From positions 1 to 28,059 of IMG/VR virus record IMGVR_UViG_3300045988_141296: a stretch of 28,059 nucleotides of DNA; one strand, given 5' to 3'. Each line of letters begins with the position of its first letter. The stretch's first letter is position 1. Positions 534 to 27,735 of this stretch are shown piece after piece. This DNA is from a virus. The notes below the pieces were generated by a model. It saw nothing but the letters and a program-made list of their open reading frames with translations, ran no database searches and was not told the DNA's origin. The position numbers were made by a program, and so were the translations under genes.

Positions 534-1011
534 GGCAATACCTGGATATGAAAACTATTTAATAGGAACTGACGGTTCGGTCTGGAGTACTAGAACCTCA
601 GTTCCGAAAAATATCAAACCTCAACTCCAAAATAGTGGATATTATTATGTTACTTTATATAATCAGTTTGGGCAAAAGAAATATCTAATACATAGACTAG
701 TGGCAGAAGTTTTCATAGGTAAAAGTGACTTATGTATTAACCATAAGGATGAAAATAAGCTAAATAATAACTTAGATAATTTAGAGTACTGTACTTATGA
801 ATATAACAATAATTATGGCAGTCATAATATTAAAGTAGGAATTTCTCATAAGAAAGCAATTAGACAGCTATCATTAGATGGAAGTTTGATTAAGAGATGA
901 GATTCCGCAATAGATGCTGAACGGGGACTTAATATACAATCCAGAAACATTGTAAAAGTTCTTAAAGGTCAGCGAAAAACAGCTGGAGGGTTTATTTGGG
1001 AATATGAATAA
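520..1011 (+). CDS. HNH homing endonuclease (NUMOD4 / HNH_3-like), 163 aa
   Basis: Track ORF 520-900 continues through TGA 898 to TAA 1009-1011 (..LIKR-W-DSAIDAERGL..RKTAGGFIWEYE*). Motifs: IPGYENYLIGTDGSVWS and HRLVAEVFIG..INHKDENKLNNNLDNLEYCT..YNNNYG. Confidence 0.85.
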
Positions 1012-1312
1012 CAATGAAATAATAGAGAAATACTATCCGTTTATTATGGAGTTAAAAGAAAAATTTGGTGCAGATGACGATTGCACACAAATGGTCTGCA
1101 TTGCACTTCTGGAAACATCTAATTCCAAGCTTCAGTCATTAGATAGTAAGAATGAGCTGAAGTATTGGATTACAAGAGTATTTAAGAATAATTGGTTTTC
1201 TAAGAATAGTAGATACTATTACCAATATAAAAAGTACTATGAAATATTTAAAGAGCCATTAGAACAACAAACGGATAATTTAGAGGATTGGTTAAATGAA
1301 GCAGAAGATTAA
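1004..1312 (+). CDS. Sigma-70/ECF-like sigma factor, region-2 half (102 aa)
   Basis: DDDCTQMVCIALLET...ELKYWITRVFKNNWFSKNSRY matches the sigma region 2 pattern (acidic D-x-x-Q, then W-h-x-R-h-x-x-N-x-x-x-x-x-x-R). Ends TAA 1310-1312. No region 4 in this ORF. Trp is encoded only by TGG. Confidence 0.55.
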   Translation: MNNNEIIEKYYPFIMELKEKFGADDDCTQMVCIALLETSNSKLQSLDSKNELKYWITRVFKNNWFSKNSRYYYQYKKYYEIFKEPLEQQTDNLEDWLNEAED

Positions 1313-1550
1313 TATTGATGATTTATTAATTGAGTATAACTTTGAAATAGATACCTTTACAGAGATGGATGATAGATTACTTGCAATTTATCCTAAATGA
1401 GAGGCATTAAATAGAGCAGATAAGACTATAATTATCTTATATGCTGAATATCGAAGTTATAGAGAAGTTGGGAAGATTCTGGGAATTAGTCATACTACCA
1501 TAGCAAGGTGTATAAGTAATATTAGAAATAAAATATGTGGAAGGATATAG
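1296..1550 (+). CDS. Sigma factor region-4-like HTH protein (84 aa)
   Basis: ATG 1296 (17-nt overlap with the previous ORF, +1 frame) to TAG 1548-1550, with TGA 1398 read as Trp (..IYPK-W-EALNR..). ADKTIIILYAEYRSYREVGKILGISHTTIARCISNIRNKI is a typical sigma region 4.2 helix-turn-helix. Confidence 0.6.
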
Positions 1551-2768: not shown

Positions 2769-3129
2769 ATATCTTTATGCTGCAAGGTTATTTAACAAAG
2801 GATGGTCAAGAAATAAAGTAAGTGAAGAACTCCAAAGTAAATATAATGTAAGCCAATCAACAGCTGCAAGATATATTGGAGAAGCTTATAAGATAATTGC
2901 TGAAAAGAATGATAACCTTATAAAAAACCTTAGACATATACAATTATCAAGATTGGAATCATTACTGGATACTGCTATTAGTAAAGGAGATATTAGAGCT
3001 GCAAATGAGATTATTAAGACTATAAATAGTATGTTTGGATTAAATCAACCTGAGACTATTGTAGCTATTCAGAATAATGAAGTCCAGTTTAAATTTGGAG
3101 ATCCAATTAACAATGACAAAAATATATAA
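2677..3129 (+). CDS. Putative small terminase subunit / HTH DNA-binding protein
   Basis: Lies directly upstream of TerL and overlaps it. N-terminal KKTGRPKK basic motif and HTH-like NVSQSTAARYIGEAYKII. Its frame is closed by TAA 2668-2670, so ATG 2677 is the first possible start. Confidence 0.45.
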   Translation: MKVKNQELPKKTGRPKKAEVEKEQIDEVKTKYLYAARLFNKGWSRNKVSEELQSKYNVSQSTAARYIGEAYKIIAEKNDNLIKNLRHIQLSRLESLLDTAISKGDIRAANEIIKTINSMFGLNQPETIVAIQNNEVQFKFGDPINNDKNI

Positions 3130-4360
3130 AGGATATAGTCCATTTATCTATCAATTAAAGGTACATACTGCTTTAGAGCACTCTTATAGGTCTGGAAAAA
3201 TATTTACTGTAAAAGCAAAGAGACAATGTGGTAAATCCTTTATGGCAGAAAATGAACTATTACGATTTTCAATTAACTATCCTGGAAGTATTAGCTGTAT
3301 TGTTGAACCAACTCTTACTAACTCCAGAAAGATATTTAAAGAGTTAGTAAAGGCATTAGATGGCACAGATATTATTAAGAAAAAGAATGAATCTTTGCTT
3401 GAGATTGAATTTACTAATGGGAGTGAAATACTATTTAAATCTGCTGAGCAAAAAGATTCATTACGAGGATTTACAGTTAGTGGAATATTAGTAATTGACG
3501 AAGCTGCTTATATATCAGATGAAGTATACGAAATTTTAACACCTATCGCTGATGTATGAAATGCTCCAATACTTATAATTAGTACTCCAAGGTTTAGAGA
3601 AGGATTCTTTTATGAATGCTTTAAAAAGGGCTTTGATGGTAATTTTAGTAAATATTATCAATCCTTTGATTGAGCATTAGAAGATACTTCTATGCTGTTA
3701 AGTGAGGATAAACTTGAAATGTATCGCCTTACAACCTCCAAAAATAAATTTAGAACTGAATATCTTGGGGAGTTTGCAGATGATGATGGTTGTCTCTTTA
3801 ATAATATAGCTAACTGCATAATTGATAAAAAACCTGAATATCATAATCTTTATATTGGAGTTGACTGGGCTACTGGTTCTGGTAAAGACTATACTTGTAT
3901 TACAGCTTTAAATGAAAATGGGCAGATGGTCTTTATAAAGTATTTTAACGACAAAACTCCAACAGAACAAGTTGATTTACTGACAAATATATTTACTGAG
4001 TATCAAGGATTTATAAAGATAGTTCAAGTCGAACAAAACTCAATAGGTTCAGTGTTTTATGATATTCTTGTAAAAAGGAATCCTAAATTACGGATAGTTA
4101 AGTTTTTAACTACTAATAAGTCTAAAGCAGCTATTGTAAATAAGCTACAAGCTGCATTAGAAAACGAAAAGATTGGTATTTTAAAGGATGATAAACTATT
4201 AAATGAATTAAGACTATATGAAGCCAGTTATAATCCAAAGACTGGAAATGTATCATATAATGCTCCATCTGGCTTTAATGATGATACTTGTATATCTTTA
4301 ATGTTAGCTTATGATGCTTTAAATACAAATAAAGGAACTTATAATATTGCAATTAAATAA
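3113..4360 (+). CDS. terL: Terminase large subunit (415 aa)
   Basis: Track ORFs 3077-3559 and 3692-4360 are in one frame, joined through TGA 3557 and TGA 3671 (..PIADV-W-NAPILIISTP.., ..QSFD-W-ALED..). Walker A KAKRQCGKSF, Walker B ILVIDEAAY, C-terminal nuclease-like GVDWATGSGKDYT...FNDDTCISL. Start chosen at ATG 3113. Confidence 0.9.
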
Positions 4361-5762: not shown

Positions 5763-7967
5763 ATGACATTTATACCAAGTAAATTAGGAATACCAAGAAG
5801 TACAGGAACATATCCTGTTAAATGGGAAAATCCAGGATGGGGTCTTACAGGAGTATATGATTATTGGCTATGAGGAGATGACTATTCAGAAGAGGGTCCA
5901 TTAGATGTTACTATTTCTAATGCAAGTACAAGTGGTTGTACTATTAACTTTACAAATCCCTCAACTATTACAACAGACTCTTCTACAATATTTAGATTTT
6001 ATCCAAAAGGACTGACTACTGCTCAATTAGAAGATACTATGCCAGTTTATCTTCATAGTCAAGCTCCTGGATTCTATCCTGCTAATAGTAGTATAACAGT
6101 ACCCAATACTGGAGGTACTTATACTGTTGAATATATATTAAGTAGAGCAGATATTATTAAATGAACTTGTGATGTAGTAAATGCTACTGCTTTAGTAAGT
6201 GTTGAGGTATTAGAATGAGATTCCTGCTCTATTAAGTTTAAGATTACAGTAAATGCTAATACTCAATGGAATACTAATCTTACTGGAACTATTCAATTAG
6301 GAGCTTATTATGATACTAATAAGTTTATTTCTTATAGTTATGGCTTTAAAATTGAAAAAAGCAATACTCCAGAAGATTTAAAGTTAGTAGTAACTCCTTC
6401 ATCTGGAACTTATGGCGCTGGTCCAGGTGTTACTGATAGATTTATGTGCACTCTAACAAGTACTGAGGAAGAGATAACAGAGTTATCTGTAACTTGTCCA
6501 GGATCTTCAAATATTATGGTTGATAAAGTTAATAAATACTTTGTTATTACTTTTCCTGATAATGCTACAACTAGTATTAAAAACTATGCTGCATTAGTTA
6601 CTGCAATAACCTCTGGTGGATATACATTAAATGCTACAGTTCCAATTACTAAGTTAGCTACTTCTTTATCTTTAAAGTCCAGTGTTAGTATTGGATATAC
6701 AGCAGGAAGATATAAGATAGACGGTACAGGTTCTGATAATTTAGATGATGTAGTATTTGCAATTCCAGCAGATGCTCAGACTTGGTTAAGTAAAATGGAG
6801 TTAGTAATAGAAAGAGGAACTCCAGGAGGTATGAATATTGTAAGTATTAATTTTGATGCTACAGAAAATACAGGTAATGCTTCAAGAAAAGCAACAGTTG
6901 GAGTTACAGTAGTAAAAAATGGTTCTAGTGTTATAAATACTTCATTTAATATTGTACAAGAGGTTAAAGCAGATATATCTCCAATATGGAAAGATTATAT
7001 ATGAGAAGAGGAAACTTTAAATGATTTTATAGAATATCATCTTGATTATGCAGGAGATACTATTTATGCTGGTAAAGCTTATAAATATCCTGATGCTACA
7101 GGAGTACAATTTTTACTTAATGATGTATCTGAAGACTTTTTAGATAACGGCATTATATTTCCATCTTTTGGAAAGACAGAAATTATACCTAACTATTTAA
7201 AAACCTTTACATTAATAACTTCAAGCGGTAGTGAAAAGCCTGTAACATTCTTTAATGATTGGTCTTATAAAGATACAGATTTAACTAAGCCTTATTTCTT
7301 AAGTGATCCTATTGACACTTTAGTTGATTCAAGACAGTATGTATTATGTAGTTGGATATTCCCAACTGGTGAAGGTGTGCTTAATAGACGTTATACTACA
7401 CCTGAAGGAGTAGCAACTACTGTAGATATTACATTAAGACAAGGAATTAATGGTTATACTTATGCAGAACCTTTAGGTAATTTACTTTTGGAATGCAAGA
7501 GTAAATATGAAATAGGATTTGTTGAATCTGGCTCTTTTACTACAACTATTAATTATCAGATTGATACTACTAATAAGAATTACGTATTATATTATACTAA
7601 TGCTTATGGAGGATGGGATAGTTTATTAGTACAAGGTAATGTTAAACAAACGGATCAAATTGAATCTCAGACTTATGTAAGAAAGGTATTAAATACCACT
7701 TCTCAGTTTAGTAAAAATAAGTATTTAAACACTATAGTTCCAGAATGGACTTTATATACTAATTATCTTACAGATACTCAAGCATCAAAGATGCACCATC
7801 TATTAGAATCTACTATGGTATATTTACATAATCTGGAGGATAATAAGATTATTCCTGTAATAATTACTAATAATAGTTGTGAGTATAAGACATATAGTAA
7901 TCAGGGTAAAAATATGTTTTATTATACTATAGAAGTACAAAGTTCTCAAGATAAATATAGAAAATAA
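5763..7967 (+). CDS. Large tail/baseplate structural protein with Ig/BACON-like repeats (734 aa), Dit-like position
   Basis: ATG 5763 to TAA 7965-7967, in the same frame as track ORFs 6444-7004 and 7377-7967. In-frame TGA at 5871, 6162, 6216 and 7002. BACON-like strings: VPNTGGTYTVEYILSRADIIK-W-TCDVV and NTGNASRKATVGVTVVKNG. Confidence 0.7.
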
Positions 7968-7968
7968 A

Positions 7969-10900
7969 ATGAGAAAGAATATAAAACTATTTATTGCAAA
8001 TAAAGAGGTTGACTGTAGTGAGGGAATTAGTCTTCCTATAACTTATACAGTTGAGGATTTCCAAAACCCCACTATAGTCAAGAACTCGTTTAGTAAGACG
8101 ATTTCTATACCTGGCACAAAGAATAATAATAAGATATTTGGAGAAATCTATAAATTAGATAGATTACAACATATTGAAGACGGTCAGTTTAGCGGTATTA
8201 ATTTCAATCCTTCAAAACGAGTTGATTTTGGAATCTATGATAATGGAGATTTAATAGAATCTGGTTATATGCAATTAAATACCATACAAATTAAACAGAA
8301 GGTCATTACATATAACATTACTTTATATGGAGGCTTAGGAGATTTCTTCTATGGGCTTAAATATAAAGAAGATGGATCATTAAGAACTCTTGCTGATTTA
8401 CAATACTTTATTACAGATGAGGAAGGTAATGTTTTACCTGCTGATACTGAAATGGATTTTTATATTAATAAAGATTTTGTAAATAAATCATTTAATAATT
8501 ATTGGAATAGCGACTTTACTACATTAGATAGCTTTGTTGGATTTATTCCTGCATATAATGGTTTATATGAGAATTTTGACAATGAAACTTGTTTAATAAA
8601 TACAGCAGGAGACACTCTATTTCCCAAATCTGCAAGCGATGGAGGAACAACATATACTCCATATAATGGTTATGCTTTAGCACAATTAAATAGAGCTTAT
8701 ACAGAATGGGAAATAAGAGACTTACGCAGTTATATGCAAAGACCAGTGTTAAAACTTTCTAAGCTTATAGAAACTATTTGTAGAAAAGAGAATTCTGGAT
8801 ATGATGTAATATTTGATGATTACTTCTTTAATTATGCAAATCCTTATTGGAGCAAATCATTTGTAGCTCTTCCCTTGCTTGGAAGTAGTGAAGATGAAGA
8901 ATCAGATTCTATTAAAGAGAACGCAAAGCTTATTAAATATGGAGCAGATAACTGGTGGGTAGGATTAAAACCTGGAGGAACAACAACTTCATATAATTGA
9001 GGATATACTTCTGTTGATGGCAGCGAGGTAATAGTTCCTGGAGAAGGAAATATTATTGATTTATCTGCAACACCTGCTAATACTTTAGTAAATATCTCAA
9101 TGGATTTTCAGGTGTTCTTCAATGCTAATGCTAGTTCCTCTGCAAATAATCTTTATTTATCCTATGTACGCAATGGAAAAATGGGAAATACTGAGTATCA
9201 TAATGATCCGTATAGAACATCTTTAACTGTTCAGATACTTGTATATAATGCCGATGATGAATCTGTTCCATCTAAACCTATAGCATATTCTCCATTGTAT
9301 AATTTTACAAATAAGATTAATACTCAAGTTCAAGCTGGACCATCTACTTGGTTTAATTATTATCCTCTTACTGATGCTCCTGTTGAGGCTATTTATGGCC
9401 ATTTTGTTAAAGATAGTGGGCAGAGGTACTATTTTAAAAGTGATACGGGAAGCAATACCTTTAGATTTGTGGTTAAAGATATGCCAAAAGTAAATAAGAT
9501 AAGGGTGTCAATTCAATTTGCCAGAAGAACAGAAAGTCTCTATAATCAAGATGCTTTATGGATTTCAGATAATATGAACCCAAATAATGTTACTGCATCA
9601 AGAGTAGCAGGATGATCTGAATTTTTATATGATTCAGATCAATATACATTAATTGCAAGTTGGCCATCGGCTGTAACATCTGATGCTCTTATTACTAAGC
9701 AGAAGCTTTTAAAGACAGAATCTACACCTGCAGATTATTTACTTAGCTATGCTAAAATGTTTGGATTATATTTTATTAAAGATATAGATTCCAAAACTAT
9801 TAGAATATTTACCAGAAACAACTTCTTTAAAAATAAGATAACAGATTGGTCTAAACGAATTGATTATTCAAAAGATTTTTCAGTTAATCCATTATTATTT
9901 GATAAGAAGTGATATACTATGAAACAAGAAGCTCCTGAGACGTATTATGCAAAGAAATATAATAAACAGTATGATATAACTTATGGGCAACAGAGATTAG
10001 ATACAGGATATAATTTTAATAGTGATAATACAGATTTATACTCAGATAACTTATATGAAAATGTAATATCTGCAAGAGATGTAGATAAGTATTATAGAAA
10101 CTATTTTAATAGTTCAAGTTCGCCCGTTCCCTGCTTCCTAAATGATAATATTACTTATCAATTATTCCATTCTACATCTACTGAAAGAAAAACAAACGAT
10201 CAGGATCTTTATGGAGTAAATTTCATTGATTCATCTAAGACTACAGAGTGGTGGGATGTTCCTGGTAATGATATATTTGCAAAGACTTGTTTCTATTCAT
10301 TAGATAATGATGAGCAAAGTTTAGAAGAAATTAAATCGACATTACTATTTTATAACGGCAATGTAGAGATGAAAGATATTGATGGCAATCCTATTACGTA
10401 TTGGATTACTGATGATGTTACAGAAATGTCTGTATTAAATGATTCTGAACCTTGCTATTTATATACTACTAGAGAAACTAATGAAGCTGGTGCTAAGATT
10501 GCAATTAAAAGAACTTCTTTACCACAATTCATAAGATATAATATATCAAGTAATTATGTAATATCTAGTTGGGATTTTGGATTACCAAGAGAAATTTATA
10601 TAGATAAAATTGCATATCCAGAACAAAGTGTTATTTATTCTCAATTCTGGAAAGAGTTCTATACTGATCAGTTTGATGTTAATACTAAGAAAGTTACTTG
10701 TTTTGTAAAATTAAATGATTTACAAGTAAACTTTGATATGTTAAGACAATTTTATTATTTTGAAGATAGTTATTGGGTATTAAATAAAATAGATGCTTAT
10801 GATGTTAATTCTGATGCAACTACCAGATGTGAATTTATAAGAGTTCAAGACATCAATAATTATATAGGAGGAGTATCTACTTTAGGTAAATACATAGAAG

Positions 10901-11418
10901 TAAGTGACCCAGAAGTTACTGTAGGGTATGAAGCTGGAAGTAAAGTTGTAACTATAGAATCTAATGTTCCTTGGAAAGTTAGTTGGTATAATAATTTGAA
11001 GATTACAAATATTTCACCAATGGAAGGATTACCTGGAATTAGTACTATGACTATTGAATATAATGAAAATCCTAAATATATTGAAGATAACTTCTATTTA
11101 AGTTTAGTAGCTCAATCTGATATTTATGAAAGATTAGGACAAGTATATTTTTATCAAACTCCTGATCCATCTAAATCAGTAAAGCTTTCTGGAAAAGTAA
11201 CAGATGCAGATGGTAAAGTATTAGATGTACAACCTTATATCTATGTAGATAATGACAACTTTGTAGATAGTACATATTGTGATGCAACAACTGGAGAGTA
11301 CTATTTATATGTTCAAAAAGGAGTTCCATTCCATTTTGAAGTACAATTATCAAGTGTTGTTAAATATGAGGAAGAACTTACTTTAAATGCAGATACTATT
11401 AAAAATATTACTATTTAA
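7969..11418 (+). CDS. Giant tail-tip / host-recognition protein (1149 aa), Tal-like position; C-terminal BACON-like and carboxypeptidase-regulatory-like domains
   Basis: Track ORFs 7969-9000, 9100-9615 and 9919-11418 share one frame, joined through TGA 8998, 9613 and 9910. C-terminal strings: EVTVGYEAGSKVVTIESNVPWKVSWYNN..GISTMTIEYNEN and SGKVTDADGKVLDVQPYIYVD..TGEYYLYVQKG. Confidence 0.75.
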
Positions 11419-11420: not shown

Positions 11421-13745
11421 ATGGCTGAAGAAATTAAAAAGGTAATAGATATAGATACTACTAAAAGTACAAAGTCAATCAAGCAGCTACGAGAACAAGT
11501 AGCTGGCTTGACTGACGAACTTGAATCATTGGAAATTGGTAGTTCTGACTATTCCAAAAAACTTGAAGAGCTTGTAAGTGCACAAAACAAGCTTAATGTA
11601 GCTACTGAATCTATGCAAGGTAAGACTGTAAATGCAGTTAAAGCTTTTGATAGTATTAACCAAGTAGCTGGCGGTCTTGCAGGTGGAGTTTCGGCTGTAA
11701 GTGCTGCATTTACTTTATTTGGAAGAGATACAGAGAATCTCCAGAAAACTATGGTTAAGCTTCAAGCAGCTATTGCTATAGTTCAAGGAATTGGAGGATT
11801 AAAGGGTTTAGGTGAAGGTGTTCTTAATGGAGTAAAATCATTTAAGGCTTTATCTGTAGCAATAACTGGTACATCAGTTGCTATGAATGGATTTAAGGCA
11901 GCATTAGTATCAACAGGAATTGGTGCTCTACTTGTAGCAGTTGGTTTGCTTATAGATAAACTTACTTCACTAAAAGATGAAGCTAAATTAACAAGCGATG
12001 AAATAGAAAATATTAGACAAAGAAATGAGAATTTAAGAACTCAAGCTAAAGAATCATTTTGAGAGGAGGAATATAATAGTCTTATTAAATTAAATCCTGA
12101 ATTAAAAGATGAAATAGAGAATGTAATTAAAGCTACTGATGCATATAAGGAATTATCAAAAGTAGGAGCTGCTGTTACCCTTCAAACTTTTGAAGAAAGG
12201 GAAGCTAAGGCATTTTTGAAAGATATTATAGAATTAGATAAGGCATTTAGGAATGCCCTAACTGCTTATGATAAAGATTTACTATCAATAGGTACAAGAT
12301 TTGGTAAAACAGAAGAGGAAATCTCAGAATTATTTAAAAATACATTATCTAGACAACAATTCTTAAAAAAAGTAACTGGGAAGGATGTAAAAGAGGCGAG
12401 ATTAGAATTACAAAGAGTTTCTGAAAGTTTAGCAGATAACACTAAATACTTAGACGAGACTAAAAATCCTTTAAGGGATTATCAAAATCTTGTAAAAACA
12501 GGAAATAAAATTCTTGAAGATAGAAAAAAAGCAGAAGAAGAAGCGGCAAGAGCTAGAAAACAGGCTTTAGATAAACTTCAAGATGAAATAAAAACTAAAA
12601 AAGCAGCTATTGATAAATATTGGTCTGATAATGAAAAAACTTTATTAAGTGAAACAGATAGAGAAAATTTAATTTTAAAAGAAAATTATCAGTTACAATT
12701 AAATGATTTAAAATGGCTACTCGATAAAAAAGAATTAACTCAAGAGGAATATAGAAAGAGATTAAAGCAAATAAATGATGCTTATGATAAAGAGTATCTA
12801 GACAATCAGAACGAGCGGTATCGTAAAGAAATTAATAATAGAATTAATTCTTTAGAACAACTTAGAGAACGAGAGAATAGATTTTTTGATCAAAGGCAAT
12901 CTGAGTTAGATACTAAATATAATAAGACATATACACATAATGCAGGTCTTGGAAACGAATACAAGACTGCGGGAGATATAAAGAGTGAAAAGAACGATAG
13001 AATAACACAATCTAATGAGCTACTTGAAATACAGTTAGGATTCTACGAAAGAGATAATAAAAGAATTGGAGAATTACAAACCACTTTAAAAGAATCGTTT
13101 GATAATGGCTTAATAACTCAAGAAGAGTATAATAATGAGTATGCAAGATTAAATGCAGAAAGAGAAGCAAATGATACTGCTGCTGCAAATGCTATTGTAG
13201 CTAATGGAGAAAAAATAAAGGCTGCTAAAAAAGATGAAATTAAAGACATTGTAGCTGCTGTTCAAGGAAGTTTTGCTGCATTAGGAAGTTTAGGTGATGC
13301 TGTAGCTCAAAACTATAAATTTGAGGCAAATAATTCCAAGAAGTCATTAAAGGAGAGAGAAAAAGCTATGGAAAATTATAAGTCTATAGCTAAAATATCT
13401 ACCGTATTTAATACCGCTTCTGCAGCAATGAATGCTTATAACTCTATGGCAGGAATTCCAGTAGTAGGTCCTGTATTAGGTGGTATTGCTGCTGCTGCAG
13501 CTATTGCTATGGGATTACTTCAAATTAAAAATATTGAAAATGAAGAAATATCTGGTAGTGATGTATCATCTTCAGTATCCGCTCCATCTGCACTTACACA
13601 AGCTCCTGTTGAGTATACTCGAAATTTACTTGGAAATAAAGAGACTGATGAACTTAATAATCCAGTTAAGTGTTATGTTGTTGAATCTGATATTACTTCA
13701 GCTCAAACTAAGGTAGCAGTTACTGAATCTAATGCTTCATTCTAG
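11421..13745 (+). CDS. Tape measure protein (774 aa)
   Basis: Track ORFs 11421-12062 and 12216-13745 share one frame, joined through TGA 12060 (..KESF-W-EEEYNS..). Long coiled-coil K/E/Q/L-rich stretches plus Gly/Ala hydrophobic segments (AGGLAGGVSAVSAAFTLFG, GIPVVGPVLGGIAAAAAIAMGLLQ). Confidence 0.8.
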
Positions 13746-13857: not shown

Positions 13858-14451
13858 ATGGAAATTACTTATAATGATCTTCCATTATTTCAGGCAGTGA
13901 TTACTGATGATTGTGATGGAATAGAATATGTTGCTTTAACAAGCAAACCAGCTACACAAGTTAACTGGGTTGCTTTTAGTAATTCTCAGAAGTTCTCGAT
14001 GGATGAAGATAAGCATTTAGTAACATCTTGCTTAATGTTAAGTGATACTCCAATTTTCAGACGAGATGAGAAACTCGGAGAATACTACATACAGTATGAT
14101 AAGGAAACTCTTCGTAAAATGGCAGAGAAGATGCTGTATGATAAGAGAACTACAGATGTAAATATTGAACATTTAGAAGATTCTGATTTAAATGGAATTA
14201 CTCTACAAGAAATCTATGTAAAGGATATTAATAGAGGAATATCTCCAGTTGAATTCCAGGATGTTCCTGATGGTTCTTTATTTGCCACTTATAAAGTAGA
14301 TAATCAAGTTATTTGAGATGCAATTAAAGCTGGTAAGTTTAAAGGGTTCTCAATTGAAGGTTTATTTACTTTAGAGAGAAAGTCTGATGAATATGACGAA
14401 ATAAAAGAGATCCTTAATATGATTAAGAAGATAAAAAGAGTTAAACATTAA
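13858..14451 (+). CDS. Prohead protease, XkdF-like (197 aa)
   Basis: Track ORF 13858-14316 continues through TGA 14314 to TAA 14449-14451 (..YKVDNQVI-W-DAIKAGKFKGFSIEGLF..). The W-x-x-h-K-x-G-x-x-x-G-F-S-I-E-G tail is characteristic of XkdF-type phage proteases. Lies upstream of scaffold and capsid genes. Confidence 0.65.
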
Positions 14452-14461: not shown

Positions 14462-15064
14462 ATGTATAGTGGATGTATATACTTAGCAACCAATCAAACT
14501 AATGGTGCAAAATATGTTGGGCAGACTAATGATTTTAGTCGCAGACAAAAAGAACATAAGTACAGAACTAAGAATGATAAATTTCATAATGCAATTCAGT
14601 ATTATGGTTTTGATTCCTTTAAATGGGATATTCTGCAAGTATTTTGCTGTTCAACAGCTGAATTACTAAGAACAAAACTGGATGAAGCAGAAATGAGATA
14701 TATTAAATTATTTGATACTTATTCAAATGGTTATAATCTTACATTAGGTGGAGGAGGCAATAAAGGACAGATTCATACAATCGAATCTAGAAATAAAATG
14801 TCTGCAAAACAGAGAGGAAGGATTATAAGCGATGAAACAAAAGATAAGCTTAGATTAGTACGTTTAGGTTCTGTACAGAGTAAAGAATCCAGGCAAAAAG
14901 TAAGTAAACGTATAATTCAAACAGATTTGAATGATGTTTATATAAAAACTTGGGATTCTTCGATGGATGCTGAACGAGAGGATAAATTTGATCATAGTGC
15001 TATTATAAGATGTTGCAAAGGTAAACAAAACTATCATAAAAATTTTAAATTTAAGTATGAGTAA
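14462..15064 (+). CDS. GIY-YIG homing endonuclease with NUMOD3-like repeats (200 aa)
   Basis: GCIYLATNQTNGAKYVGQT..RRQKEH..YNLTLGGGG, followed by repeated S-x-E-S/T-R-x-K-h-S motifs. No in-frame TGA. It is the only gene here with an SD-like AGAGG, 5 nt upstream of the ATG. Inserted between protease and scaffold. Confidence 0.85.
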   Translation: MYSGCIYLATNQTNGAKYVGQTNDFSRRQKEHKYRTKNDKFHNAIQYYGFDSFKWDILQVFCCSTAELLRTKLDEAEMRYIKLFDTYSNGYNLTLGGGGNKGQIHTIESRNKMSAKQRGRIISDETKDKLRLVRLGSVQSKESRQKVSKRIIQTDLNDVYIKTWDSSMDAEREDKFDHSAIIRCCKGKQNYHKNFKFKYE

Positions 15065-15681: not shown

Positions 15682-16587
15682 ATGGCAAATAGTCCTGTAA
15701 TGACTAGTCTTACTGCTTATGTAGAGCAGAGACGTCTTCCTCTTATTAAAGAGGCTGTATTAAAGGCTAAGAGTGCTTCGTTGTTCAATCTTCAAACTGA
15801 CATCAAAACTAGTGCTGCTCTTAACCTGTTATCTACCGATGTTCAGTTCGGTGATGGTCTTACTTGTGGTTGGGATGAAGCTGGAACTCAGACTCTTTCT
15901 CAGAGAATTCTGGCTACTGGTAATATTAAGATCAATATGGCATATTGTGATAAAGAGATGCTTAAATACTGGACTCAGTATCAAGTACGAGTAGCTGCTG
16001 GTCAGAAGACGCTTCCTTTTGAAGAGGACTTTATTAGTGGTGTAGTTGAGAATGTTAAAGCCGCTATTGAAACCGCTATCTGGCAAGGTGATACTAGTTC
16101 TAGTACGAACAACCTTAGATATTTCGATGGTCTGTTAAAGATCTTAAAAAATGCTGCTGGTACTGTTGATGTAACGATTACTGGTACTTCTGCTTATGAT
16201 GACATTATGGCTGTTTATAACGCTATTCCTGAGAAGGTTCTGGATGGTGCTTCTATCTTAGTTGGCAGTGATACTTTCCGTAAATTTATCCAGGAGTTAG
16301 TTGCTAAGAACTACTACCATTATAGTGGTGAGAATCTTAATGGTGAGATTATGCTTCCTGGTTCGCAGGTTAAAGTAATCGCTGTTAATGGTCTTAATGG
16401 AACTGATAAGATTGTTGCTGGTCAGTTAGATAAGAACTTCTTCTATGGTTGCGATATGATGAACGATGAGGAGAAGTTTGAATTGTGGTATTCACAAGAT
16501 TTCCGCGAATTTAGATTAGCTATTGAATTTAACGCTGGCGTACAGGTTGCATTCCCTGATGAGGTAGTTCTTGGTGCCAAAGCCTAA
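15682..16587 (+). CDS. Major capsid protein (301 aa)
   Basis: Position after protease and scaffold, size, and visibly higher G+C with biased codon use (GGT/GCT/CTT/ACT). Four Trp, all TGG, and no TGA. Confidence 0.75.
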   Translation: MANSPVMTSLTAYVEQRRLPLIKEAVLKAKSASLFNLQTDIKTSAALNLLSTDVQFGDGLTCGWDEAGTQTLSQRILATGNIKINMAYCDKEMLKYWTQYQVRVAAGQKTLPFEEDFISGVVENVKAAIETAIWQGDTSSSTNNLRYFDGLLKILKNAAGTVDVTITGTSAYDDIMAVYNAIPEKVLDGASILVGSDTFRKFIQELVAKNYYHYSGENLNGEIMLPGSQVKVIAVNGLNGTDKIVAGQLDKNFFYGCDMMNDEEKFELWYSQDFREFRLAIEFNAGVQVAFPDEVVLGAKA

Positions 16588-16625: not shown

Positions 16626-17150
16626 ATGGCTTGTTTAATAACTATCGCTGGTATTACCCTGGATTGCGAATCTTCGCTTGGTGGTATCAAACAGGTATGG
16701 ATTACTCAGTACGATAACGTTAAGAGTGTAACTGTAGATGATGAGACTAATCAAATCTCAGCTATTACTCTTGAAGAAGATGCTAAATGGTATAATTACC
16801 AATTCCGCAAAGGTACTGGTTCTCTAACCTCAACATTGAACGTTGACGAAACTGCAGGAACCAACTATGTAAGTAATGAGCTTGCTCTTGTATTTACAAA
16901 GATGGAGACTAAGAAAAGAATCGAGATTGCTGCTCTTTCTATTGGACAACTTGTAGTTGTTGTAGAAGATTCTAATGGCAAATATTGGTTCTTAGGAAAA
17001 GATGACTATGTAAGCGCTTCCGCTGGTACGGGTGTTACTGGTACTGCAAAAGGTGATCAGAACGCTTATACGCTGACTTTAGCTACTGACTCTGAATCAT
17101 ATCCTTATGAGTTGAGTGCAGAAGCTATCCAAAGTGTTGTAGGTGCTTAA
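16626..17150 (+). CDS. Abundant virion structural protein (major tail tube or head decoration candidate, 174 aa)
   Basis: N-terminal ..ITLDCESSLGGIKQVWITQYDNV.., a pattern common in phage structural proteins. Same GC-richer codon bias as the capsid gene and followed by a strong terminator. No TGA. Confidence 0.45.
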   Translation: MACLITIAGITLDCESSLGGIKQVWITQYDNVKSVTVDDETNQISAITLEEDAKWYNYQFRKGTGSLTSTLNVDETAGTNYVSNELALVFTKMETKKRIEIAALSIGQLVVVVEDSNGKYWFLGKDDYVSASAGTGVTGTAKGDQNAYTLTLATDSESYPYELSAEAIQSVVGA

Positions 17151-17160
17151 CAACAGAAGA

Positions 17161-17196
17161 GGGGCGAGTATTAATTTACTTGCCCCTTATTTTGTT
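17161..17196 (+). terminator. Rho-independent terminator
   Basis: Stem GGGGCGAGTA (17161-17170) / TACTTGCCCC (17177-17186) with one G-U pair, loop TTAATT, then TTATTTTGTTT. Confidence 0.8.
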
Positions 17197-17217
17197 TATA
17201 TACCACATAATGAATAA

Positions 17218-17236
17218 TTTATATTTTATAGAAAAA
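17218..17236 (+). promoter_or_regulatory. Candidate promoter / leader motif TTTATATTTTATAGAAAAA
   Basis: Nearly identical to 22890-22908 (TTTATATTTTAAGAAAAAG) and similar to 5265-5280. Contains TAtaTTTt, resembling the Bacteroidota TAnnTTTG -7 box. Lies just after a terminator and before ATG 17241. Confidence 0.3.
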
Positions 17237-17240
17237 TAAT

Positions 17241-20667: not shown

Positions 20668-21282
20668 ATGATTATACTTAAGAATACTAAAAATACACAA
20701 ACTTTCTATGTAAGTAAGAAATGTGGTATTGAATCTGGACAACTTCCAGTTGGTTCTTATACAAAGATTGAAGCAGATGCGAGATTTCAACCTAAAGGTA
20801 ATTACATTTCCGAAGATAAGGCTGTTGAAATAATTGATGAGCAAATTAATTCTCAGTTGGATGTTATACTTGAACCTAAGTTAGAGCCAATTAAGAATGA
20901 TATTACTGAATTAGAAACATCTAAGATGGAAGTATTTCAAGCTAATCAACCTCTATCTTTACATAGAAATGGAGAAGGTTTGCAACTATCTGTAGATTTA
21001 AGTAATTATGCAACTAAAGCAGAAATTCCTGATACTAGTGATTTTGCTACTAAAGAAGAGCTTACAGCTGTAGAGAATAAGATTCCTGATGTATCTGGAT
21101 TAGCTACTAAAGATCAAGTTGCACTTAAAGCAGATAAAAGTGAGTTATCAAACTATGTAACTACAGATGCATATAATACAAAGATGACAGAGTTAGATGG
21201 AGAAATCTCAGCAATTCAAGCTCAGATTGGTAATATTTCAACTACTCTTGATACAATTAATGGTGAAATTCCAAATGAATAG
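20668..21282 (+). CDS. Short tail-fibre-like protein (204 aa)
   Basis: Shares fibre motifs with 17241-19583: (Q)LSVDLS(G/N)[22 protein letters not shown]. Coiled-coil-like C-terminus. Ends TAG 21280-21282. Confidence 0.6.
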
Positions 21283-21796
21283 AGTATTAACAAATTATCC
21301 TAACTATAGTGTATCTTCTACAGGAGATGTATATAGTAACCCATTGACTTTTAAAGATTCTATTGGAAGAACCAGAAAACAAATACATAAAAAGCTAAAA
21401 CAGCATATAGATAAATATGGCTATAATTATGTAATTCTAGTATCTGGCTTAGATAAACCTAAAGCTATTAAAGTTCACAGACTAGTAGCAGAAGCATTTA
21501 TTCCAAATCCTGACAATCTACCATATGTTAACCATATAAATGAAAATAAGACAGATAATAGGGTAGAAAATTTAGAATGATGTGATGCAAAGTATAATAA
21601 TACATATGGAACTAGAATAAATAGATGTATTGATAAAATTAGTAAACCTGTAGGGCTATTTATTAATGATTTACTAGTTAAAACATATAAAAATGCAATT
21701 GAAACATCAATAGATGGGTATACTCATAGTAGAGTTATAGATTGTCTTAAAGGAAGAACAGACACTTATAAAGGGGTAAAATTTAAATATATCTAA
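21275..21796 (+). CDS. HNH homing endonuclease (NUMOD4 / HNH_3-like), 173 aa
   Basis: Start chosen at ATG 21275; the track start at 21197 overlaps the fibre gene. Continues through TGA 21578 to TAA 21794-21796. [45 protein letters not shown], a paralogue of 1535-2020. Confidence 0.85.
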
Positions 21797-21797: not shown

Positions 21798-22787
21798 ATG
21801 GCAAATACAATTTCTGATAAATTAACGTATCTTGAAGGTACTAAGAGTGCCATTAAAGATGCTATTGTAGCTAAAGGTGTTGCTGTATCAGATTCAGATA
21901 CCTTTAGAAGCTATGCAGATAAGATAGGACAGATTTCTGGAGGTGGTGGAGGAAAGATTAATTTAAATGATTATGGATTAACATTTGCAAATTCTAAAAT
22001 GGATAAAGATCATTATGATAACGTTGAATATGAAATTCCACAAGATTGTAGTTATTGATTTCATATGGCTTCATTTCAAGATCCTATTGATATATCTGAT
22101 CATATTAATCCAGATATATTATATGCTGCGGAAAGAACATTTCAAAATGCTAGCAATATACATATTAATGAGATAAAACTGATGGCCGAACGTTCATATA
22201 CATTTTCTGGTTTTGCAGGCAGTATTGATACTCTAGAATTTATTAATCCTCAATCCCCTAGTTGAGGATATTGTACGCGCACATTTTATTTATCCTCATC
22301 TTTTCCAAAAAATATAACAATAACAAATAAGTATGAAACTAGTGGATGTTCATTAGAATATTTTTTTAATCAAGTAACTACTGATTCTGCTGTTCCTATT
22401 AGTGTCCCTGAAATTGAAGTTATAAATGGGCAAGTAACTTTTACTCAGTATTTTAGCTCATATTCATCTAGTATCACATCTGTAGGTAAAATAAAATTAA
22501 CAAATTGTTCTTTACACCAAGATCTTAATAAATGAGCACTTTGTGGTACAGCTAGTAGTGTTGTAACTTATTTTGGGGGTGTTGAAGGAGCTGATAAAAG
22601 TATGAATTTAGCAAATTTTAGAGCACTAAATAGTCAATCAGTAACTGATATTATTACAAATGTTAGTGATTTAACTGGAAAGGATACCAAAACTTTAACT
22701 TTTTATACTAACGTTTATAATGCACTTACTGAAGAACAGAAATCATTAGCTACATCTAAAAACTGAACTTTAGCAAGTTCAAACTAA
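21798..22787 (+). CDS. Fibre-associated protein, paralogue of the 19585 LRR protein (329 aa)
   Basis: Track ORFs 21798-22058 and 22065-22265 plus untracked sequence share one frame to TAA 22785-22787, with TGA at 22056, 22263, 22533 and 22764. N-terminal fibre-like LTYLEGTKSAIKDAIVAKGV. C-terminal ..VYNALTEEQKSLATSKN-W-TL.. aligns with ..VYNSLTEEQKSQITSKGWSV.. of 19585-20427. Confidence 0.7.
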
Positions 22788-23333: not shown

Positions 23334-24411
23334 AACAAAAGTACAATTAAGTGCAATTGATCCTGTTGTAGTGTCAAATTTAGTACTTCCTGTAGAATCG
23401 AGAAAAAGGGGTTCTGATTGGATTTCTTGGGGTGAAGATAATCGCTATCCATTATATCTATGGGATTTATACTTAAATGTAGCTACTCTTCAATCTATCA
23501 TTAATGGGACTGCTGACTTTATTGTTGGTAATGATGTTATATGTAATGCACCAGGATTTGAAGTAACTGTAAATAAGAAAGGTGAAACTATTATGGATAT
23601 TATGCGTAAAGTATCTAAAGATAAGATGATTTTTGGAGGATATGCTTTACAAATAATTAGAGATATGTTAGGTAGAGTTTCAGAGATCTATCATCTTGAC
23701 TTTATGAAGATTCGTTCTGATGAAAAGAATGAAGTATTCTATTATGCCGATGATTGGTCTGCTTGGTCTATTAAAGCTATCAAATATCCAAAATTTAATT
23801 ATTCAGATGATAATCCTACAAGTGTTGTTTATAATAAGGGCTATATAACAAGAAAAGTATATCCAGTCCCTGTTTATGGTGCAGCTATCCTATCTTGCGA
23901 AACTGAGAAGAATATTAATGAGTTTCATCTAAATTCTCTTCATAACGGATTTATGGGTAATATTATCATTAACTTTAATAATGGACAGCCTACAGACGAA
24001 GTTAAAGAAGAGATTGAGATGAATATTAATGAGAAATTCTCAGGATTTCAAAATGCTGGCAGAGTTCTTATTTCATATAATGATGATGAAACAAATAAGA
24101 CTACTATTGAGCGTTTAGACTCTGATGATTTTGATGAGAAATATAGTGCTTTATCTGAAAGGACAAGAGAACAGATATTCTGCGCATTTAGAGCTAATAG
24201 TGTACTTTTTGGCCTTAACTACTCAAGTGGATTCAACGAACAAGAATTTAATGAAGCTTTTAAACTTTATAATCGTACAGTAGTTAGACCAATTCAGGTC
24301 GAAATAGTAGATACATTTGATAAGATATTTGGAATGAAAGGTTCAATAACTATAACTCCTTTTAGCTTAACTCCAAATGGACAAGAAGATAGCAAACAAA
24401 ATGTTGAATAA
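23320..24411 (+). CDS. Portal protein (363 aa)
   Basis: Start chosen at ATG 23320 (MSENKTKVQ..) within track ORF 23263-24411. ..DWISWGEDNRYPLYLWDLYLNVATLQSIINGTADFIVGN..FGGYALQII.. fits the N-terminal pattern of phage portal proteins. Five Trp, all TGG. Confidence 0.7.
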   Translation: MSENKTKVQLSAIDPVVVSNLVLPVESRKRGSDWISWGEDNRYPLYLWDLYLNVATLQSIINGTADFIVGNDVICNAPGFEVTVNKKGETIMDIMRKVSKDKMIFGGYALQIIRDMLGRVSEIYHLDFMKIRSDEKNEVFYYADDWSAWSIKAIKYPKFNYSDDNPTSVVYNKGYITRKVYPVPVYGAAILSCETEKNINEFHLNSLHNGFMGNIIINFNNGQPTDEVKEEIEMNINEKFSGFQNAGRVLISYNDDETNKTTIERLDSDDFDEKYSALSERTREQIFCAFRANSVLFGLNYSSGFNEQEFNEAFKLYNRTVVRPIQVEIVDTFDKIFGMKGSITITPFSLTPNGQEDSKQNVE

Positions 24412-25009
24412 TTATACTGTTTATTGCCATATAAATAAGTATAACAATAAGCTATATTTTGGCATTACTGGACAAAGTGTGCAAGCTAGGTGAAAAAATG
24501 GATATGGATACTCTACTCAAGCTTACTTTTATAAAGCGATACAAAAATATAGCTGAGATGGATTTGAACATATCATAATTAAAGATAATTTACCAGAAGC
24601 TTGTGCTAAGACATTAGAAAGGATATTGATACATAAATATAAAACAAATACTCCTGAAAATGGTTACAATATAACATCAGGAGGAGAAGGTACATACGGG
24701 TATTCTTTTTCTAATGAGAGTAGAGCAAAAATGTCAAATTCTAAAAAAGGTAAAACACCCTGGAATAAAGGAAAGAAAGGAATCTATACTTTGGAAACAC
24801 TTATTAAAATTGGAAATGCTTCCAAAGGACGAATTACTAGAGTTAAGCCTATATTAAGATTTGATATGAATGGGAATTTTATTGCAAGATATAATTCAAT
24901 GAAAGAAGCTGTTAAATCAGTTAATGGAGAACGTTCTGGATTATATTTAGCTTTAAAAGAAAATAGACCTTATAAAAACAATAAATTTATTTATGATGGA
25001 ACAACTTAA
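24401..25009 (+). CDS. GIY-YIG homing endonuclease (202 aa)
   Basis: ATG 24401 (11-nt overlap with portal), in frame with track ORF 24626-25009 through TGA 24491 and 24554. YTVYCHINKYNNKLYFGITGQSVQAR-W-KNGYGY..KAIQKYS-W-DGFEHIII..ERILIHKY..GYNITSGGEG, then a NUMOD3-like SxESRAKMS. Confidence 0.8.
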
Positions 25010-25684: not shown

Positions 25685-26110
25685 ATGACCTACTATGAGA
25701 TAATTAGCAATTTAAAAGCTTGTGCATTAGAAGAGCCAAACATCAATTTTGTAGGAAGTAAAGATATTTATGAGTTAAATAGCTTACCAACTATTGAGTA
25801 TAATGTGTTCTATATAACACCTAATACTTTTAGTGTAGATGAAGATACTATTACTTACTCTTTAAACCTATACTTCGTATCAAGATGGGATGAGACTGAT
25901 AACAACCAATTGGAGGAACAGTCAGCAGGTATGCTTGCACTGCAAAATATAATTAATCGTTTTAATAACCTATATCCAGAAGTTGAAATAGCTTATCCTT
26001 TAATTTATACTCCATTCTATCAAAAGTTCAAAGATATTACCTGCGGAGTGTTTGTTAGAGCTGATTTCCAAGTTGACAACACACTGGGTTTATGTCAAGA
26101 CAGTATGTAA
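25685..26110 (+). CDS. Hypothetical virion/connector protein (141 aa)
   Basis: Intact ORF packed tightly after the adaptor-like gene. No recognisable motif. Confidence 0.4.
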   Translation: MTYYEIISNLKACALEEPNINFVGSKDIYELNSLPTIEYNVFYITPNTFSVDEDTITYSLNLYFVSRWDETDNNQLEEQSAGMLALQNIINRFNNLYPEVEIAYPLIYTPFYQKFKDITCGVFVRADFQVDNTLGLCQDSM

Positions 26111-26766
26111 TGGAAAATAAATTAAATTGGTTTGGTAAAGTATTAGAATGGGTTGATAAATATGGATTACTAAAGATATTTAAAGCAGGGATTGGATTAA
26201 TATTTATATCCTATGTAATGGTTATTACACTTAATCCCTCTATTGTTTATAATAAGGTTGTAACCTATATTGAACAAACTCACAATTCTAAAACTATTGC
26301 AAGAAATGAAGCAACTTTAAAGATTAAATATAAGCTTAAAGAATTGCTTCAAAGTACCAATGCTGATAGAGCTTGGGTTATTGAATATCATAATGGAACT
26401 ACTGGATTAGGGGGACTTCCATTTACTTATGGAGTAATGAATGCAGAGGAAGTAAAACCAGGAATAAGACCTGTAAGTAGCCATTATAAAGATTTCCTGT
26501 TATCTGACTATACTTCAATTATAGAGTTTTCTAAGAATGATGGATGGTTTGGTAATATAGATAGTTTAGAAGCAGATGATCCAAGATTATATTATGCATT
26601 TAAATCCAACAGAGTGAATGAAATAGCAGTATTTTATTTAAAGACTGAGGATAAAGATATTGGCATTTTAGGTTTGTCATTCTGTGATACACCTATGCCT
26701 TATGATACTTGAGTACATCTAAGAAGAGCTGGAATACAGATAAGTATAATTTTAAATAAAATATAA
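26110..26766 (+). CDS. N-terminally membrane-anchored protein of unknown function next to the lysis genes (218 aa)
   Basis: ATG 26110 (TAATG overlap; alternative ATG at 26092). Track ORF ending at 26712 continues through TGA 26710 to TAA 26764-26766. TM segment GLLKIFKAGIGLIFISYVMVITL, then a roughly 150-aa soluble domain. Confidence 0.55.
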
Positions 26767-26767: not shown

Positions 26768-26929
26768 ATGAAATATTGGTTAAAATATGTAATTGCAGTA
26801 GTTATTATTCTGCTGATATGTTTACTAATCAAAGTAATTCCTTTTTGGATTACTGTAGTATTACTTGTAATAGGTGTGGCTTCACATCTATTTTATAGAT
26901 ATGTTATGATTAAAGATATACTTAAATAA
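26768..26929 (+). CDS. Holin candidate (53 aa, two TM segments)
   Basis: MKYWLKYVIAVVIILLICLLIKVIPFWITVVLLVIGVASHLFYRYVMIKDILK*. Below the track size cut-off. Its stop overlaps the endolysin ATG (TAATG). Confidence 0.55.
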   Translation: MKYWLKYVIAVVIILLICLLIKVIPFWITVVLLVIGVASHLFYRYVMIKDILK

Positions 26930-27381
26930 TGAAGTATTTCACACTCGAAGAATTAACAAGATCTGATACTGCTTCAATTAAGCATATAGATAACACTCCA
27001 GATGAGAGTATAACAGAGCACCTGATAGAGTTGGTCGAGAAGCTTTTAGACCCAATAAGAGAGAGATGGGCAAAGTATTGTGATGACAATCAGCTTGGCA
27101 ATGCAGGCATCAGGATTTCCTCTGGTTTTAGGAATAAGGAGCTTAATAAAGCAGTGGGAGGATCTTCAACTTCTGCTCATTTAACAGGGTATGCAGCAGA
27201 TATATCTCCAATTAATGGTAATATGAAAGTATTCCAAAGTTGGATTGCTGAAGCTATCGAAGAATTTGATTTCGACCAGTTGATATATGAAAGGCCTAGG
27301 AATGGTATAGCAAGTTGAATACACTTGGGATTAAAGAATAAAGACGGAATGCAAAGACGACAGAAATTTACTATTATATAA
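26929..27381 (+). CDS. Endolysin, peptidase M15 (VanY / D-Ala-D-Ala carboxypeptidase-like) family (150 aa)
   Basis: Track ORF 26929-27318 continues through TGA 27316 to TAA 27379-27381. SGFRNKELNKAVGGSSTSAHLTGYAADI carries the H-x6-D zinc motif. ..NGIAS-W-IHLGLK supplies the family's conserved W-x-H with the third zinc-ligand His. Confidence 0.8.
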
Positions 27382-27383: not shown

Positions 27384-27722
27384 ATGGATTCCAAATCAAG
27401 TAAATTGCTTCATAAGACTAAGAGAAAAGTAAGAAGTGAAGAATATTTAAAGTACCAGAGATATATCCGCTCAAAGGAATTTAAGGTGATTAGAGAGCAA
27501 GTTTTGTTGCGAGATAACTACCACTGCCAAACTTGTAATTGGTGCGTTGAGGAAGGCGGAAACAGGTCATTATCGGTACATCATAAGCGGTATGACAATT
27601 TATATGAGGAGCAAGACCATTTGGAAGATTTGATAACATTATGTTCAGTATGTCATAAAGCTATACATTCGGCAGTAAGTAATTATCAGAGGTTTAATAA
27701 AAAAGAAAAGGAGGGTAAATAA
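27384..27722 (+). CDS. HNH nuclease (HNHc type, 112 aa), possibly packaging-associated
   Basis: CQTCNW..SLSVHHKRY..LITLCSVCHKAIH. No TGA. Last gene of the plus-strand block. Confidence 0.75.
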   Translation: MDSKSSKLLHKTKRKVRSEEYLKYQRYIRSKEFKVIREQVLLRDNYHCQTCNWCVEEGGNRSLSVHHKRYDNLYEEQDHLEDLITLCSVCHKAIHSAVSNYQRFNKKEKEGK

Positions 27723-27735
27723 CCCTCCTTTTTTA
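27708..27735. terminator. Bidirectional rho-independent terminator at the convergence point
   Basis: Stem AAGGAGGGT (27708-27716) / ACCCTCCTT (27722-27730), loop AAATA containing the HNH stop codon. T-run downstream on the plus strand and CTTTTCTTTTT on the minus strand. Confidence 0.75.

Follow-up and report, generated by a model that had tools for sequence, protein, structure and literature searches.

In-frame recoded stop codons are found in structural and lysis genes of recoded gut phages, where they are proposed to block premature expression until the code changes (Borges et al., bioRxiv 10.1101/2021.08.26.457843; the model appeared later in Nat Microbiol 2022, as cited in PMC9523058). 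Small recoded clades of 22–34 kb have been reported, such as Garnet, Amethyst and Topaz, and recoded phages of standard-code hosts have 26–71% of their genes recoded, compared to ~90% in code-25-adapted phages (bioRxiv 10.1101/2021.08.26.457843). A TGA suppressor tRNA (Sup-TCA) is present in 35% of code-4 phages according to the same study (bioRxiv 10.1101/2021.08.26.457843) and in 15% according to Cook et al. (PMC11210395). Here we describe a phage endolysin gene with a single in-frame TGA codon, located at 26929–27381 in IMG/VR virus record IMGVR_UViG_3300045988_141296, of which the whole stretch of 28,059 nucleotides (positions 1 to 28,059; the window) was analyzed. The full genome is ~30.4 kb long, of which the window spans about 28 kb, and the absent ~2.4–3 kb was read in two relatives, L001 and L003. 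An earlier sequence-only reading had proposed that this TGA could be a translational lock on lysis. Based on the comparisons presented below, it is probable that the TGA (27316–27318) is an ordinary tryptophan (Trp) codon, W130, of a full-length 150-amino acid (aa) M15_3/LAS endolysin in a phage that uses TGA as Trp genome-wide; the idea of a regulatory lock on lysis was published before and finds no support here.

The endolysin gene and its in-frame TGA codon

With TGA read as Trp, the endolysin open reading frame (ORF) encodes 150 aa; it extends on the + strand from an ATG at 26929 to a TAA at 27379–27381. As the sequence-only reading had stated, there is only one in-frame TGA, at codon 130, and it is situated two codons before a His codon: it is followed by ATA (Ile131) and CAC (His132, 27322–27324), and the frame is open up to the TAA. 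The gene has three Trp codons, TGG for W47 and W105 and TGA for W130. The 20 residues past the TGA, IHLGLKNKDGMQRRQKFTII, can be aligned to the C-terminal ends of homologs from standard-code Bacteroidales genomes, which have the motif W-[IMV]-H-[VIL]-G-Y-K, encode its Trp by TGG and in many cases have TGA as their terminator. At codon 130, all 28 of the distinct recoded sequences have TGA and all standard-code homologs have TGG. These alignments indicate that the stretch past the TGA is genuine coding sequence, and the tryptic peptide spanning codon 130, with TGA read as Trp, would be NGIASWIHLGLK.

The endolysin has similarity to Pfam PF08291, Peptidase_M15_3 (53.6 bits, cutoff 23.2), and, over residues 1–145, to PHROG 894 'endolysin' (E=1.7e-29). 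Its H-x6-D motif, SAHLTGYAAD (H84 to D91, 27178–27201, + strand), aligns with H154 and D161 of the Streptomyces albus Zn DD-peptidase 1lbu (SRHMYGHAAD; positions from the alignment), which we take to be the zinc ligands of that enzyme, and H84 and D91 are the predicted first two zinc ligands of the phage protein. An alignment of 35 full-length homologs shows no variation at H84, W130 or H132 and conservation of at least 90% at D91. An AlphaFold (AF2) model of P0001, a protein 96% identical to the window endolysin, had a predicted local distance difference test score (pLDDT) of 96.1 and a predicted template modeling score (pTM) of 0.90, with beta-strands at residues 130–134 and 145–149. The best Foldseek match of this model was 1lbu (E=4e-5, 138 columns), followed by Hedgehog-N, LdcB, VanY and ChiX. 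By its family matches and its modeled fold, the endolysin is a Peptidase_M15_3 protein and LAS-fold zinc peptidase, for which zinc binding and peptidoglycan hydrolysis are the predicted functions. A structural model had been proposed as a check of the downstream His as a metal ligand: the model places H132 on strand 130–134 of the LAS fold, and its role as the putative third zinc ligand is assigned by homology.

A stop at codon 130 would leave the H-x6-D motif intact and remove W-I-H, as had been proposed, and with it the invariant, putatively zinc-binding His132 and the last two beta-strands. The 129-aa product ending at Ser129 is therefore very probably inactive, judging from the family matches, the alignments and the model. 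The consequences of truncation put forward in the sequence-only reading are thus supported; the regulatory meaning attached to them is not. TGA can only occur at a Trp codon, and since one of the three Trp residues of the endolysin lies in the W-x-H motif, its position before the His is not beyond chance. The TGA is two codons before His132 because W-x-H is invariant in the family, and there is no need for regulatory placement. That the position of the codon is set by a conserved Trp, together with a genome-wide pattern of TGA avoidance (see below), argues against a purpose-built lock, and this case speaks against taking every in-frame TGA in a lysis gene for one. No signal peptide was noticed in the endolysin by eye, although no dedicated prediction was made.

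The immediate surroundings of the endolysin gene are as follows:

26092..26766, + strand: membrane-anchored lysis-cassette protein, 224 aa; TGA at 26710–26712 (W207)
26768..26929, + strand: holin-like ORF, 53 aa, two hydrophobic segments; free of TGA
27384..27722, + strand: HNH endonuclease, last gene of the rightward operon (Pfam PF01844, E=9e-6)
27704..27734, both strands: bidirectional intrinsic terminator between convergent operons; 13- and 11-pair stems, then T runs

The HNH gene begins with an ATG three bases past the endolysin TAA, at 27384, and the terminator ends a long rightward operon that encodes regulators, terminase, tail, head, portal, lysis proteins and the HNH endonuclease. 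W207 of the lysis membrane protein is TGA in 20 of 20 relatives, and at least one TGA is present in all 31 distinct sequences of this protein. A holin role for the 26768–26929 product is suggested by its size, hydrophobic segments and position; it has no PHROG or Pfam match. In the expected course of lysis, the endolysin, as product of the penultimate gene of the rightward operon, would accumulate in the cytoplasm and would reach the wall once the adjacent holin-like protein triggers. Canonical holin-endolysin lysis is timed by the holin, and a block of the endolysin by itself would not postpone the lethal event at the membrane.

Several additional observations relate to this gene. Public gene calls of the endolysin are often 127–129-aa fragments ending at the TGA (P0024, P0037, P0050, P0051, P0097 and similar entries), and some sources name the truncated entries 'putative chitinase' or 'YcbK (DUF882 family)'. 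The endolysin is mosaic across the window and L001–L127, with N-terminal, middle and C-terminal variants recombining (e.g., ...NGIASWIHLGLKN... vs. ...SSTSQWVHIALYS...). An M15_3 endolysin with TGA at the W-x-H Trp and TGG at the W47 equivalent is also encoded at 1872–2285 of L060, a contig binned to a Faecalibacillus metagenome-assembled genome (MAG). L060 is a fragment of an unrelated TGA-recoded phage (GC 36%) whose ORF coverage rises from 0.55 to 0.82 with TGA as sense; no tRNA was found in the 8.3 kb covered.

TGA as a tryptophan codon across the genome

ORFs of at least 80 aa cover 0.74 of the window under NCBI translation table 11 and 0.96 with TGA as a sense codon, in which case they abut on the + strand. 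The window genes end in TAA (27) or TAG (6) and none ends in TGA, while 33 of the 106 Trp codons (31%) are TGA and 73 are TGG; in-frame TGAs are present in 18 of 33 genes (55%). The same gain in coverage and lack of TGA stops were seen in L001–L020 and L103–L127. When the window was aligned with 20 IMG/VR relatives, a window TGA was opposite TGG in 83 cells and a window TGG opposite TGA in 75 cells. After these 158 exchanges Tyr and Phe codons were next, with only ~3 Gly codons. TGA therefore exchanges with TGG and hardly with Gly codons, as expected for table 4 (Trp) and not for table 25 (Gly), and on these grounds the genome is assigned to NCBI translation table 4, with TGA read as Trp throughout. 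Alternatives to Trp, namely a genuine stop, selenocysteine or glycine (code 25), and an origin of the TGA by sequencing error or pseudogene decay, are extremely improbable. Glycine was rejected because TGA swaps with TGG and not GGN, and the others were rejected from the codon exchanges, the conserved downstream frame and the fact that 28 distinct endolysin sequences share the TGA; no Rfam family reached its gathering threshold anywhere that was searched. In practical terms, about half of the genes of a widespread gut phage family come out split under table 11.

The sequence-only reading had regarded TGA as a mark of essential late functions. The TGAs that it cited in TerL (3557), the prohead protease (14314), the tape measure protein (12060) and the lysis membrane protein (26710) are all in frame as it stated, and the holin candidate is indeed TGA-free. 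The genes concerned, along with others referred to below, are:

3077..4360, + strand: large terminase TerL, 427 aa, Terminase_6N and 6C; TGAs at 3557–3559 (W161) and 3671–3673 (W199)
13858..14451, + strand: prohead protease, XkdF/S78_2-like (Pfam PF14550, E=6e-9); TGA at 14314–14316
11421..13745, + strand: tape measure protein, 774 aa (PHROG 3336, E=7e-13); TGA at 12060–12062
15682..16587, + strand: major capsid protein (PHROG 11320, 1623 and 10, 'major head protein'); no TGA, four TGG
1296..1550, + strand: sigma-70 region 4/helix-turn-helix (HTH) protein, 84 aa (HTH_50, Sigma70_r4, r4_2); TGA at 1398–1400 (W35)
1004..1312: weakly sigma70-ECF region-2-like ORF (weak TIGR02937 match), overlapping 1296–1550
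L001 8439–10160, minus strand: 573-aa helicase-like protein, within the ~2.4–3 kb absent from the window

By its distribution among the genes, TGA is not a mark of essential late functions. In the window, lysis genes have TGA at two of 10 Trp codons compared to 31% overall (p=0.72, no enrichment), and head and packaging genes are depleted in TGA (3/24, against 21 TGG; p=0.026), with zero in the major capsid and portal genes. The enriched genes are the homing endonucleases and the small genes that open the rightward operon (13/24, p=0.011). In TerL, the cited W161 codon is TGG in eight of nine relatives, and W199 is TGA in all nine. The TGA of the sigma-region-4/HTH gene is kept in 10 of 10 relatives. 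Across the family, TGA fractions, counted over distinct family sequences as the share of Trp codons, were:

Holin-like gene: 0 (0/25 Trp codons, 13 distinct sequences)
Connector-like genes: 0.04–0.14
TerS: 0.08
Portal: 0.13
TerL: 0.37
Endolysin: 0.43
Lysis membrane protein: 0.51
Operon-head genes: 0.26–0.79
Fiber 17241 and receptor-binding protein 21798 (the two Trp-bearing fiber/receptor-binding proteins): 0.92–0.97
Homing endonucleases: 0.5–1.0
Family mean: 0.40

TGA is used less often in the window than mutation bias alone would predict, as five other codon pairs ending in A or G are 73% A-ending compared to 31% TGA among Trp codons (p=2e-19). TGA is thus best described as a disfavored, apparently costly Trp synonym that seems to have been purged from abundant head proteins and the holin-like gene and tolerated elsewhere, being accepted or even frequent in low-copy products such as enzymes, regulators, receptor-binding proteins and homing endonucleases. 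A readthrough-favoring context was considered and rejected, since TGA sites resemble TGG sites in their +4 and −1 bases and in their placement along the gene, over which TGA is evenly spread.

The leftward operon, as read in L001, faces the terminator and comprises the 573-aa helicase-like gene followed by ORFs of 53, 46 and 49 aa. The 573-aa gene has no TGA and four to five TGG codons in three alleles that are 73–100% identical, and is the sole large gene that is TGA-free in every allele; the 53-aa ORF has a TGA that is conserved between alleles only 61% identical. The label 'helicase-like' is based on P-loop-like, DEYH and TAT motifs read by eye; the protein had no PDB, PHROG or NCBIfam match, and Helicase_C_2 was sub-threshold only.

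The family is one of uncultured, strongly mosaic gut phages of ~30–31 kb, and the window phage has no match in INPHARED by DNA or capsid protein. The best candidate for a phage transcription factor is 1296–1550 together with 1004–1312, by sequence similarity. This sigma-70-like factor is seemingly split over the two overlapping ORFs in different frames, an arrangement kept in L001, and may be either a two-piece sigma factor or the result of a programmed frameshift. Six homing-endonuclease-like genes are present within 28 kb (520–1011, 1535–2020, 21197–21796, 14462–15064, 24377–25009 and 27384–27722): three are paralogous ORFs (whose L001 counterparts have I-HmuI_NUMOD-like or NUMOD domains), one is the HNH gene identified by Pfam and two were judged GIY-YIG-like from sequence, the L001 counterpart of one matching NUMOD3. 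Their presence and position vary among relatives, and few genes are richer in TGA. An ORF at 16985–17239 (84 codons with TGA as sense) has five TGAs and overlaps the 3' end of 16626–17150; it is probably a spurious out-of-frame sequence, with a frameshift extension as the alternative.

Three other contigs deserve mention. L056, a 4.6 kb horse-faeces MAG contig, is a distant relative (portal 31% and endolysin 47% identical) whose genes have no TGA, either sense or stop, and whose W-x-H Trp is TGG; in its codon usage it resembles the 'TGA lost' intermediate postulated in codon recapture. L124 (IMGVR_UViG_3300045988_175865, 148,631 bp) has the same endolysin, and was considered as a larger helper phage; this was rejected based on the 16 kb examined, which has the gene order of the ~30 kb family, and L124 probably arose in assembly by concatenation or chimeric joining of several related genomes. 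L153, a 171-kb phage contig poorly covered by ORFs with either table 11 or table 4, encodes a CTA-anticodon suppressor tRNA (7275–7353) about 0.7 kb from an M15_3 endolysin homolog.

Decoding of TGA, the host and competing explanations

The suggestion that suppressor availability times packaging and lysis was not upheld, as searches of the ~30.4 kb genome and about 35 related loci with ARAGORN (default and relaxed settings) and Rfam (to E=10) gave no suppressor tRNA and the holin-like gene is TGA-free. ARAGORN detected no tRNA in the window, L001–L022 or L110–L127. In a pseudo-genome combining the window and the gap region, it found nothing at the 90% threshold and 13 weak calls within coding sequence at 80%, none with a tca anticodon. 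Its mitochondrial mode gave 68 calls, which were partly inspected, with nothing credible. Rfam found no tRNA even at E≤10 in the window, gap region or related loci. As a positive control, ARAGORN detected the Sup-CTA tRNA in the unrelated TAG-recoded L153. There was also no recognizable code-switch gene in the fully surveyed ~30.4 kb genome. Given the lack of a phage suppressor tRNA, and that operon-head genes already need TGA to be read, the capacity to decode TGA would have to be present in the infected cell from early on.

The host is probably a member of the Bacteroidales using the standard code, based on several lines of indirect sequence evidence. The closest cellular homologs of the endolysin are overwhelmingly from Bacteroides, Alistipes, Parabacteroides, Phocaeicola and Prevotellaceae (45–53% identity), and in L055, a Bacteroidales MAG contig, a homolog of the 26092–26766 membrane protein is directly upstream of an endolysin homolog. 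Shine-Dalgarno sequences gave no signal (4/33 genes vs. a 12% background), and the absence of such motifs is typical of Bacteroidota. The Bacteroidota −7 promoter motif TAnnTTTG was uninformative in AT-rich DNA (44 occurrences vs. 40 expected). That the phage encodes a peptidoglycan endolysin excludes the wall-less Mycoplasmatales as hosts.

TGA would be decoded either by the host itself or, in a standard-code host (probably one of the Bacteroidales), through a phage factor other than a tRNA. A less likely but notable possibility is that the family reads TGA without a tRNA of its own, either in standard-code Bacteroidales by an undescribed route or in an unrecognized wall-bearing code-4 gut bacterium. 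Possibilities for the former are a small phage protein that disables release factor 2 (RF2) or retunes the host tRNA-Trp, or a suppressor provided by a resident element. The candidate list for a decoding factor is short, since in a genome of ~45 genes the TGA-free ORFs without an assigned role are a handful: the 46-, 49- and 573-aa proteins of the leftward operon and one 79-aa ORF.

A host that is natively code 4, with a tRNA-Trp(UCA) and no RF2, would mean that the phage shares its host's code and TGA has no regulatory meaning. This would fit the lack of a phage tRNA, the presence of TGA in regulators and in both operons and the absence of TGA stops; moreover, wall-bearing code-4 bacteria, Eggerthellaceae with a mean GC of 36.8%, are present in mammalian guts (bioRxiv 10.64898/2025.12.01.691617), and many table-4 phages merely mirror the host code (Cook et al., PMC11210395). 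We nonetheless consider such a host doubtful, as the endolysin excludes the Mycoplasmatales and its nearest cellular counterparts are in standard-code Bacteroidales, where the copies often end in TGA. AT-rich native code-4 genomes favor TGA, whereas TGA makes up 31% of Trp codons in this phage, against an A-ending expectation of ~73%, and is found in 18 of 33 genes. Actinomycetota or Bacillota genes would also be expected to show a Shine-Dalgarno signal, which was not seen. Genomes with TGA as sense are rare in any case, accounting for 18 of 4930 human-microbiome reference genomes (PMC8153819).

A temporal code switch of the kind modeled by Borges et al., in which the host stops at TGA early and a phage-induced change later permits TGA to be read as Trp, gating packaging and lysis, is consistent with the probable standard-code Bacteroidales host, the lack of TGA in the 573-aa helicase-like gene (with its four to five TGG codons in three alleles) and the presence of at least one TGA in every endolysin, lysis membrane protein and TerL. 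The under-use of TGA is compatible with incomplete adaptation, and there is precedent, including recoded prophages in standard-code hosts (bioRxiv 10.1101/2021.08.26.457843). The operon layout is thus in part what an early/late switch predicts, but it is not clean and the switch is missing, as neither a suppressor tRNA nor a recognizable switch gene was found in the ~30.4 kb genome. In addition, the conserved 53-aa ORF of the leftward operon itself has a conserved TGA, TGA is most frequent in the genes that open the rightward operon, the sigma-region-4-like regulator among them, and there is no lock in the holin-like, major capsid or portal genes. Together with the lack of TGA enrichment in lysis genes and the TGG at TerL W161 in most relatives, this makes a switch unlikely. 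Leaky readthrough by host tRNA-Trp(CCA), serving as a dosage attenuator for low-copy proteins such as the endolysin, would fit TGA being frequent in low-copy proteins and scarce in abundant head proteins, and the endolysin has only one or two TGAs. However, several long essential proteins have three or four (5763–7967 has four, 7969–11418 three and 21798–22787 four), for which readthrough of a few per cent would give a negligible yield, and TGA sites show no bias in their +4 or −1 bases; we regard this explanation as very unlikely.

Some observations weigh against W130 as an ordinary Trp codon. The codon is TGA in all 28 distinct recoded endolysins, down to 46% aa identity, and these include that of L060, an apparently independent recoded phage which shares only the endolysin gene, while W47 is invariably TGG; the fixed TGA could reflect selection for keeping one TGA in the endolysin. 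That every family member has at least one TGA in its endolysin, lysis membrane protein and TerL, and that the helicase-like gene of the leftward operon never carries one, is the architecture which the Borges model predicts. The expression-level view of TGA avoidance was derived from gene function. Site-specific selection for TGA at W130 was considered and was not demonstrable, because two of the 10 other conserved A/G twofold columns of the endolysin alignment, W47 and K74, are likewise monomorphic (three of 11 in all, with W130).

Comparison with known systems

The endolysin shares with M15/LAS zinc peptidases (1lbu, VanY, LdcB, ChiX and the PHROG 894 endolysins) the H-x6-D motif and C-terminal His, the LAS fold, and the arrangement of a small single-domain enzyme adjoining a small membrane protein. 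It differs in its second motif, which is W-x-H, whereas other LAS/M15 enzymes have H-x-H or E-x-x-H.

As in the phages of Mycoplasma and Spiroplasma, TGA is a sense codon in all transcription units and no phage tRNA appears to be needed; unlike those phages, the window phage encodes a peptidoglycan peptidase and has TGA as a minority Trp codon. The A1 protein of phage Qbeta is made by the host tRNA-Trp occasionally reading UGA, and is thus also an example of UGA decoded as Trp without a phage tRNA. However, Qbeta has one leaky site which yields a minor product, while the window phage has 33 sense TGAs in 18 of 33 genes.

The closest likeness is to the recoded gut phages described by Borges et al. 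(2021/2022) and Ivanova et al. (2014), which include TGA-to-Trp (code 4) phages such as the Agate and Jade clades. As in these phages, the window phage has low GC, stops dominated by TAA, in-frame TGAs that align with Trp, lysis and structural genes with TGA, a replication-type gene that is TGA-free and, probably, a standard-code host. With 55% of its genes having TGA, it falls inside the 26–71% range of recoded phages of standard-code hosts, and the TGA-free distant relative L056 fits a stop that was lost and then recaptured as sense. Unlike some of them, it has no suppressor tRNA, release factor 1 (RF1) or tryptophanyl-tRNA synthetase, but such absence is already common; TGA decoding without a tRNA is a recognized gap for most table-4 phages, which a compact genome of ~30 kb would be a convenient system to close. 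A further difference is that recoding shows no preference for the lysis genes: TGA is most abundant in genes for operon-head regulators, homing endonucleases and receptor-binding proteins. The phage therefore fits the published class of stop-codon-recoded gut phages, for which the idea of a lock has already been published and is not specific to the W130 codon.

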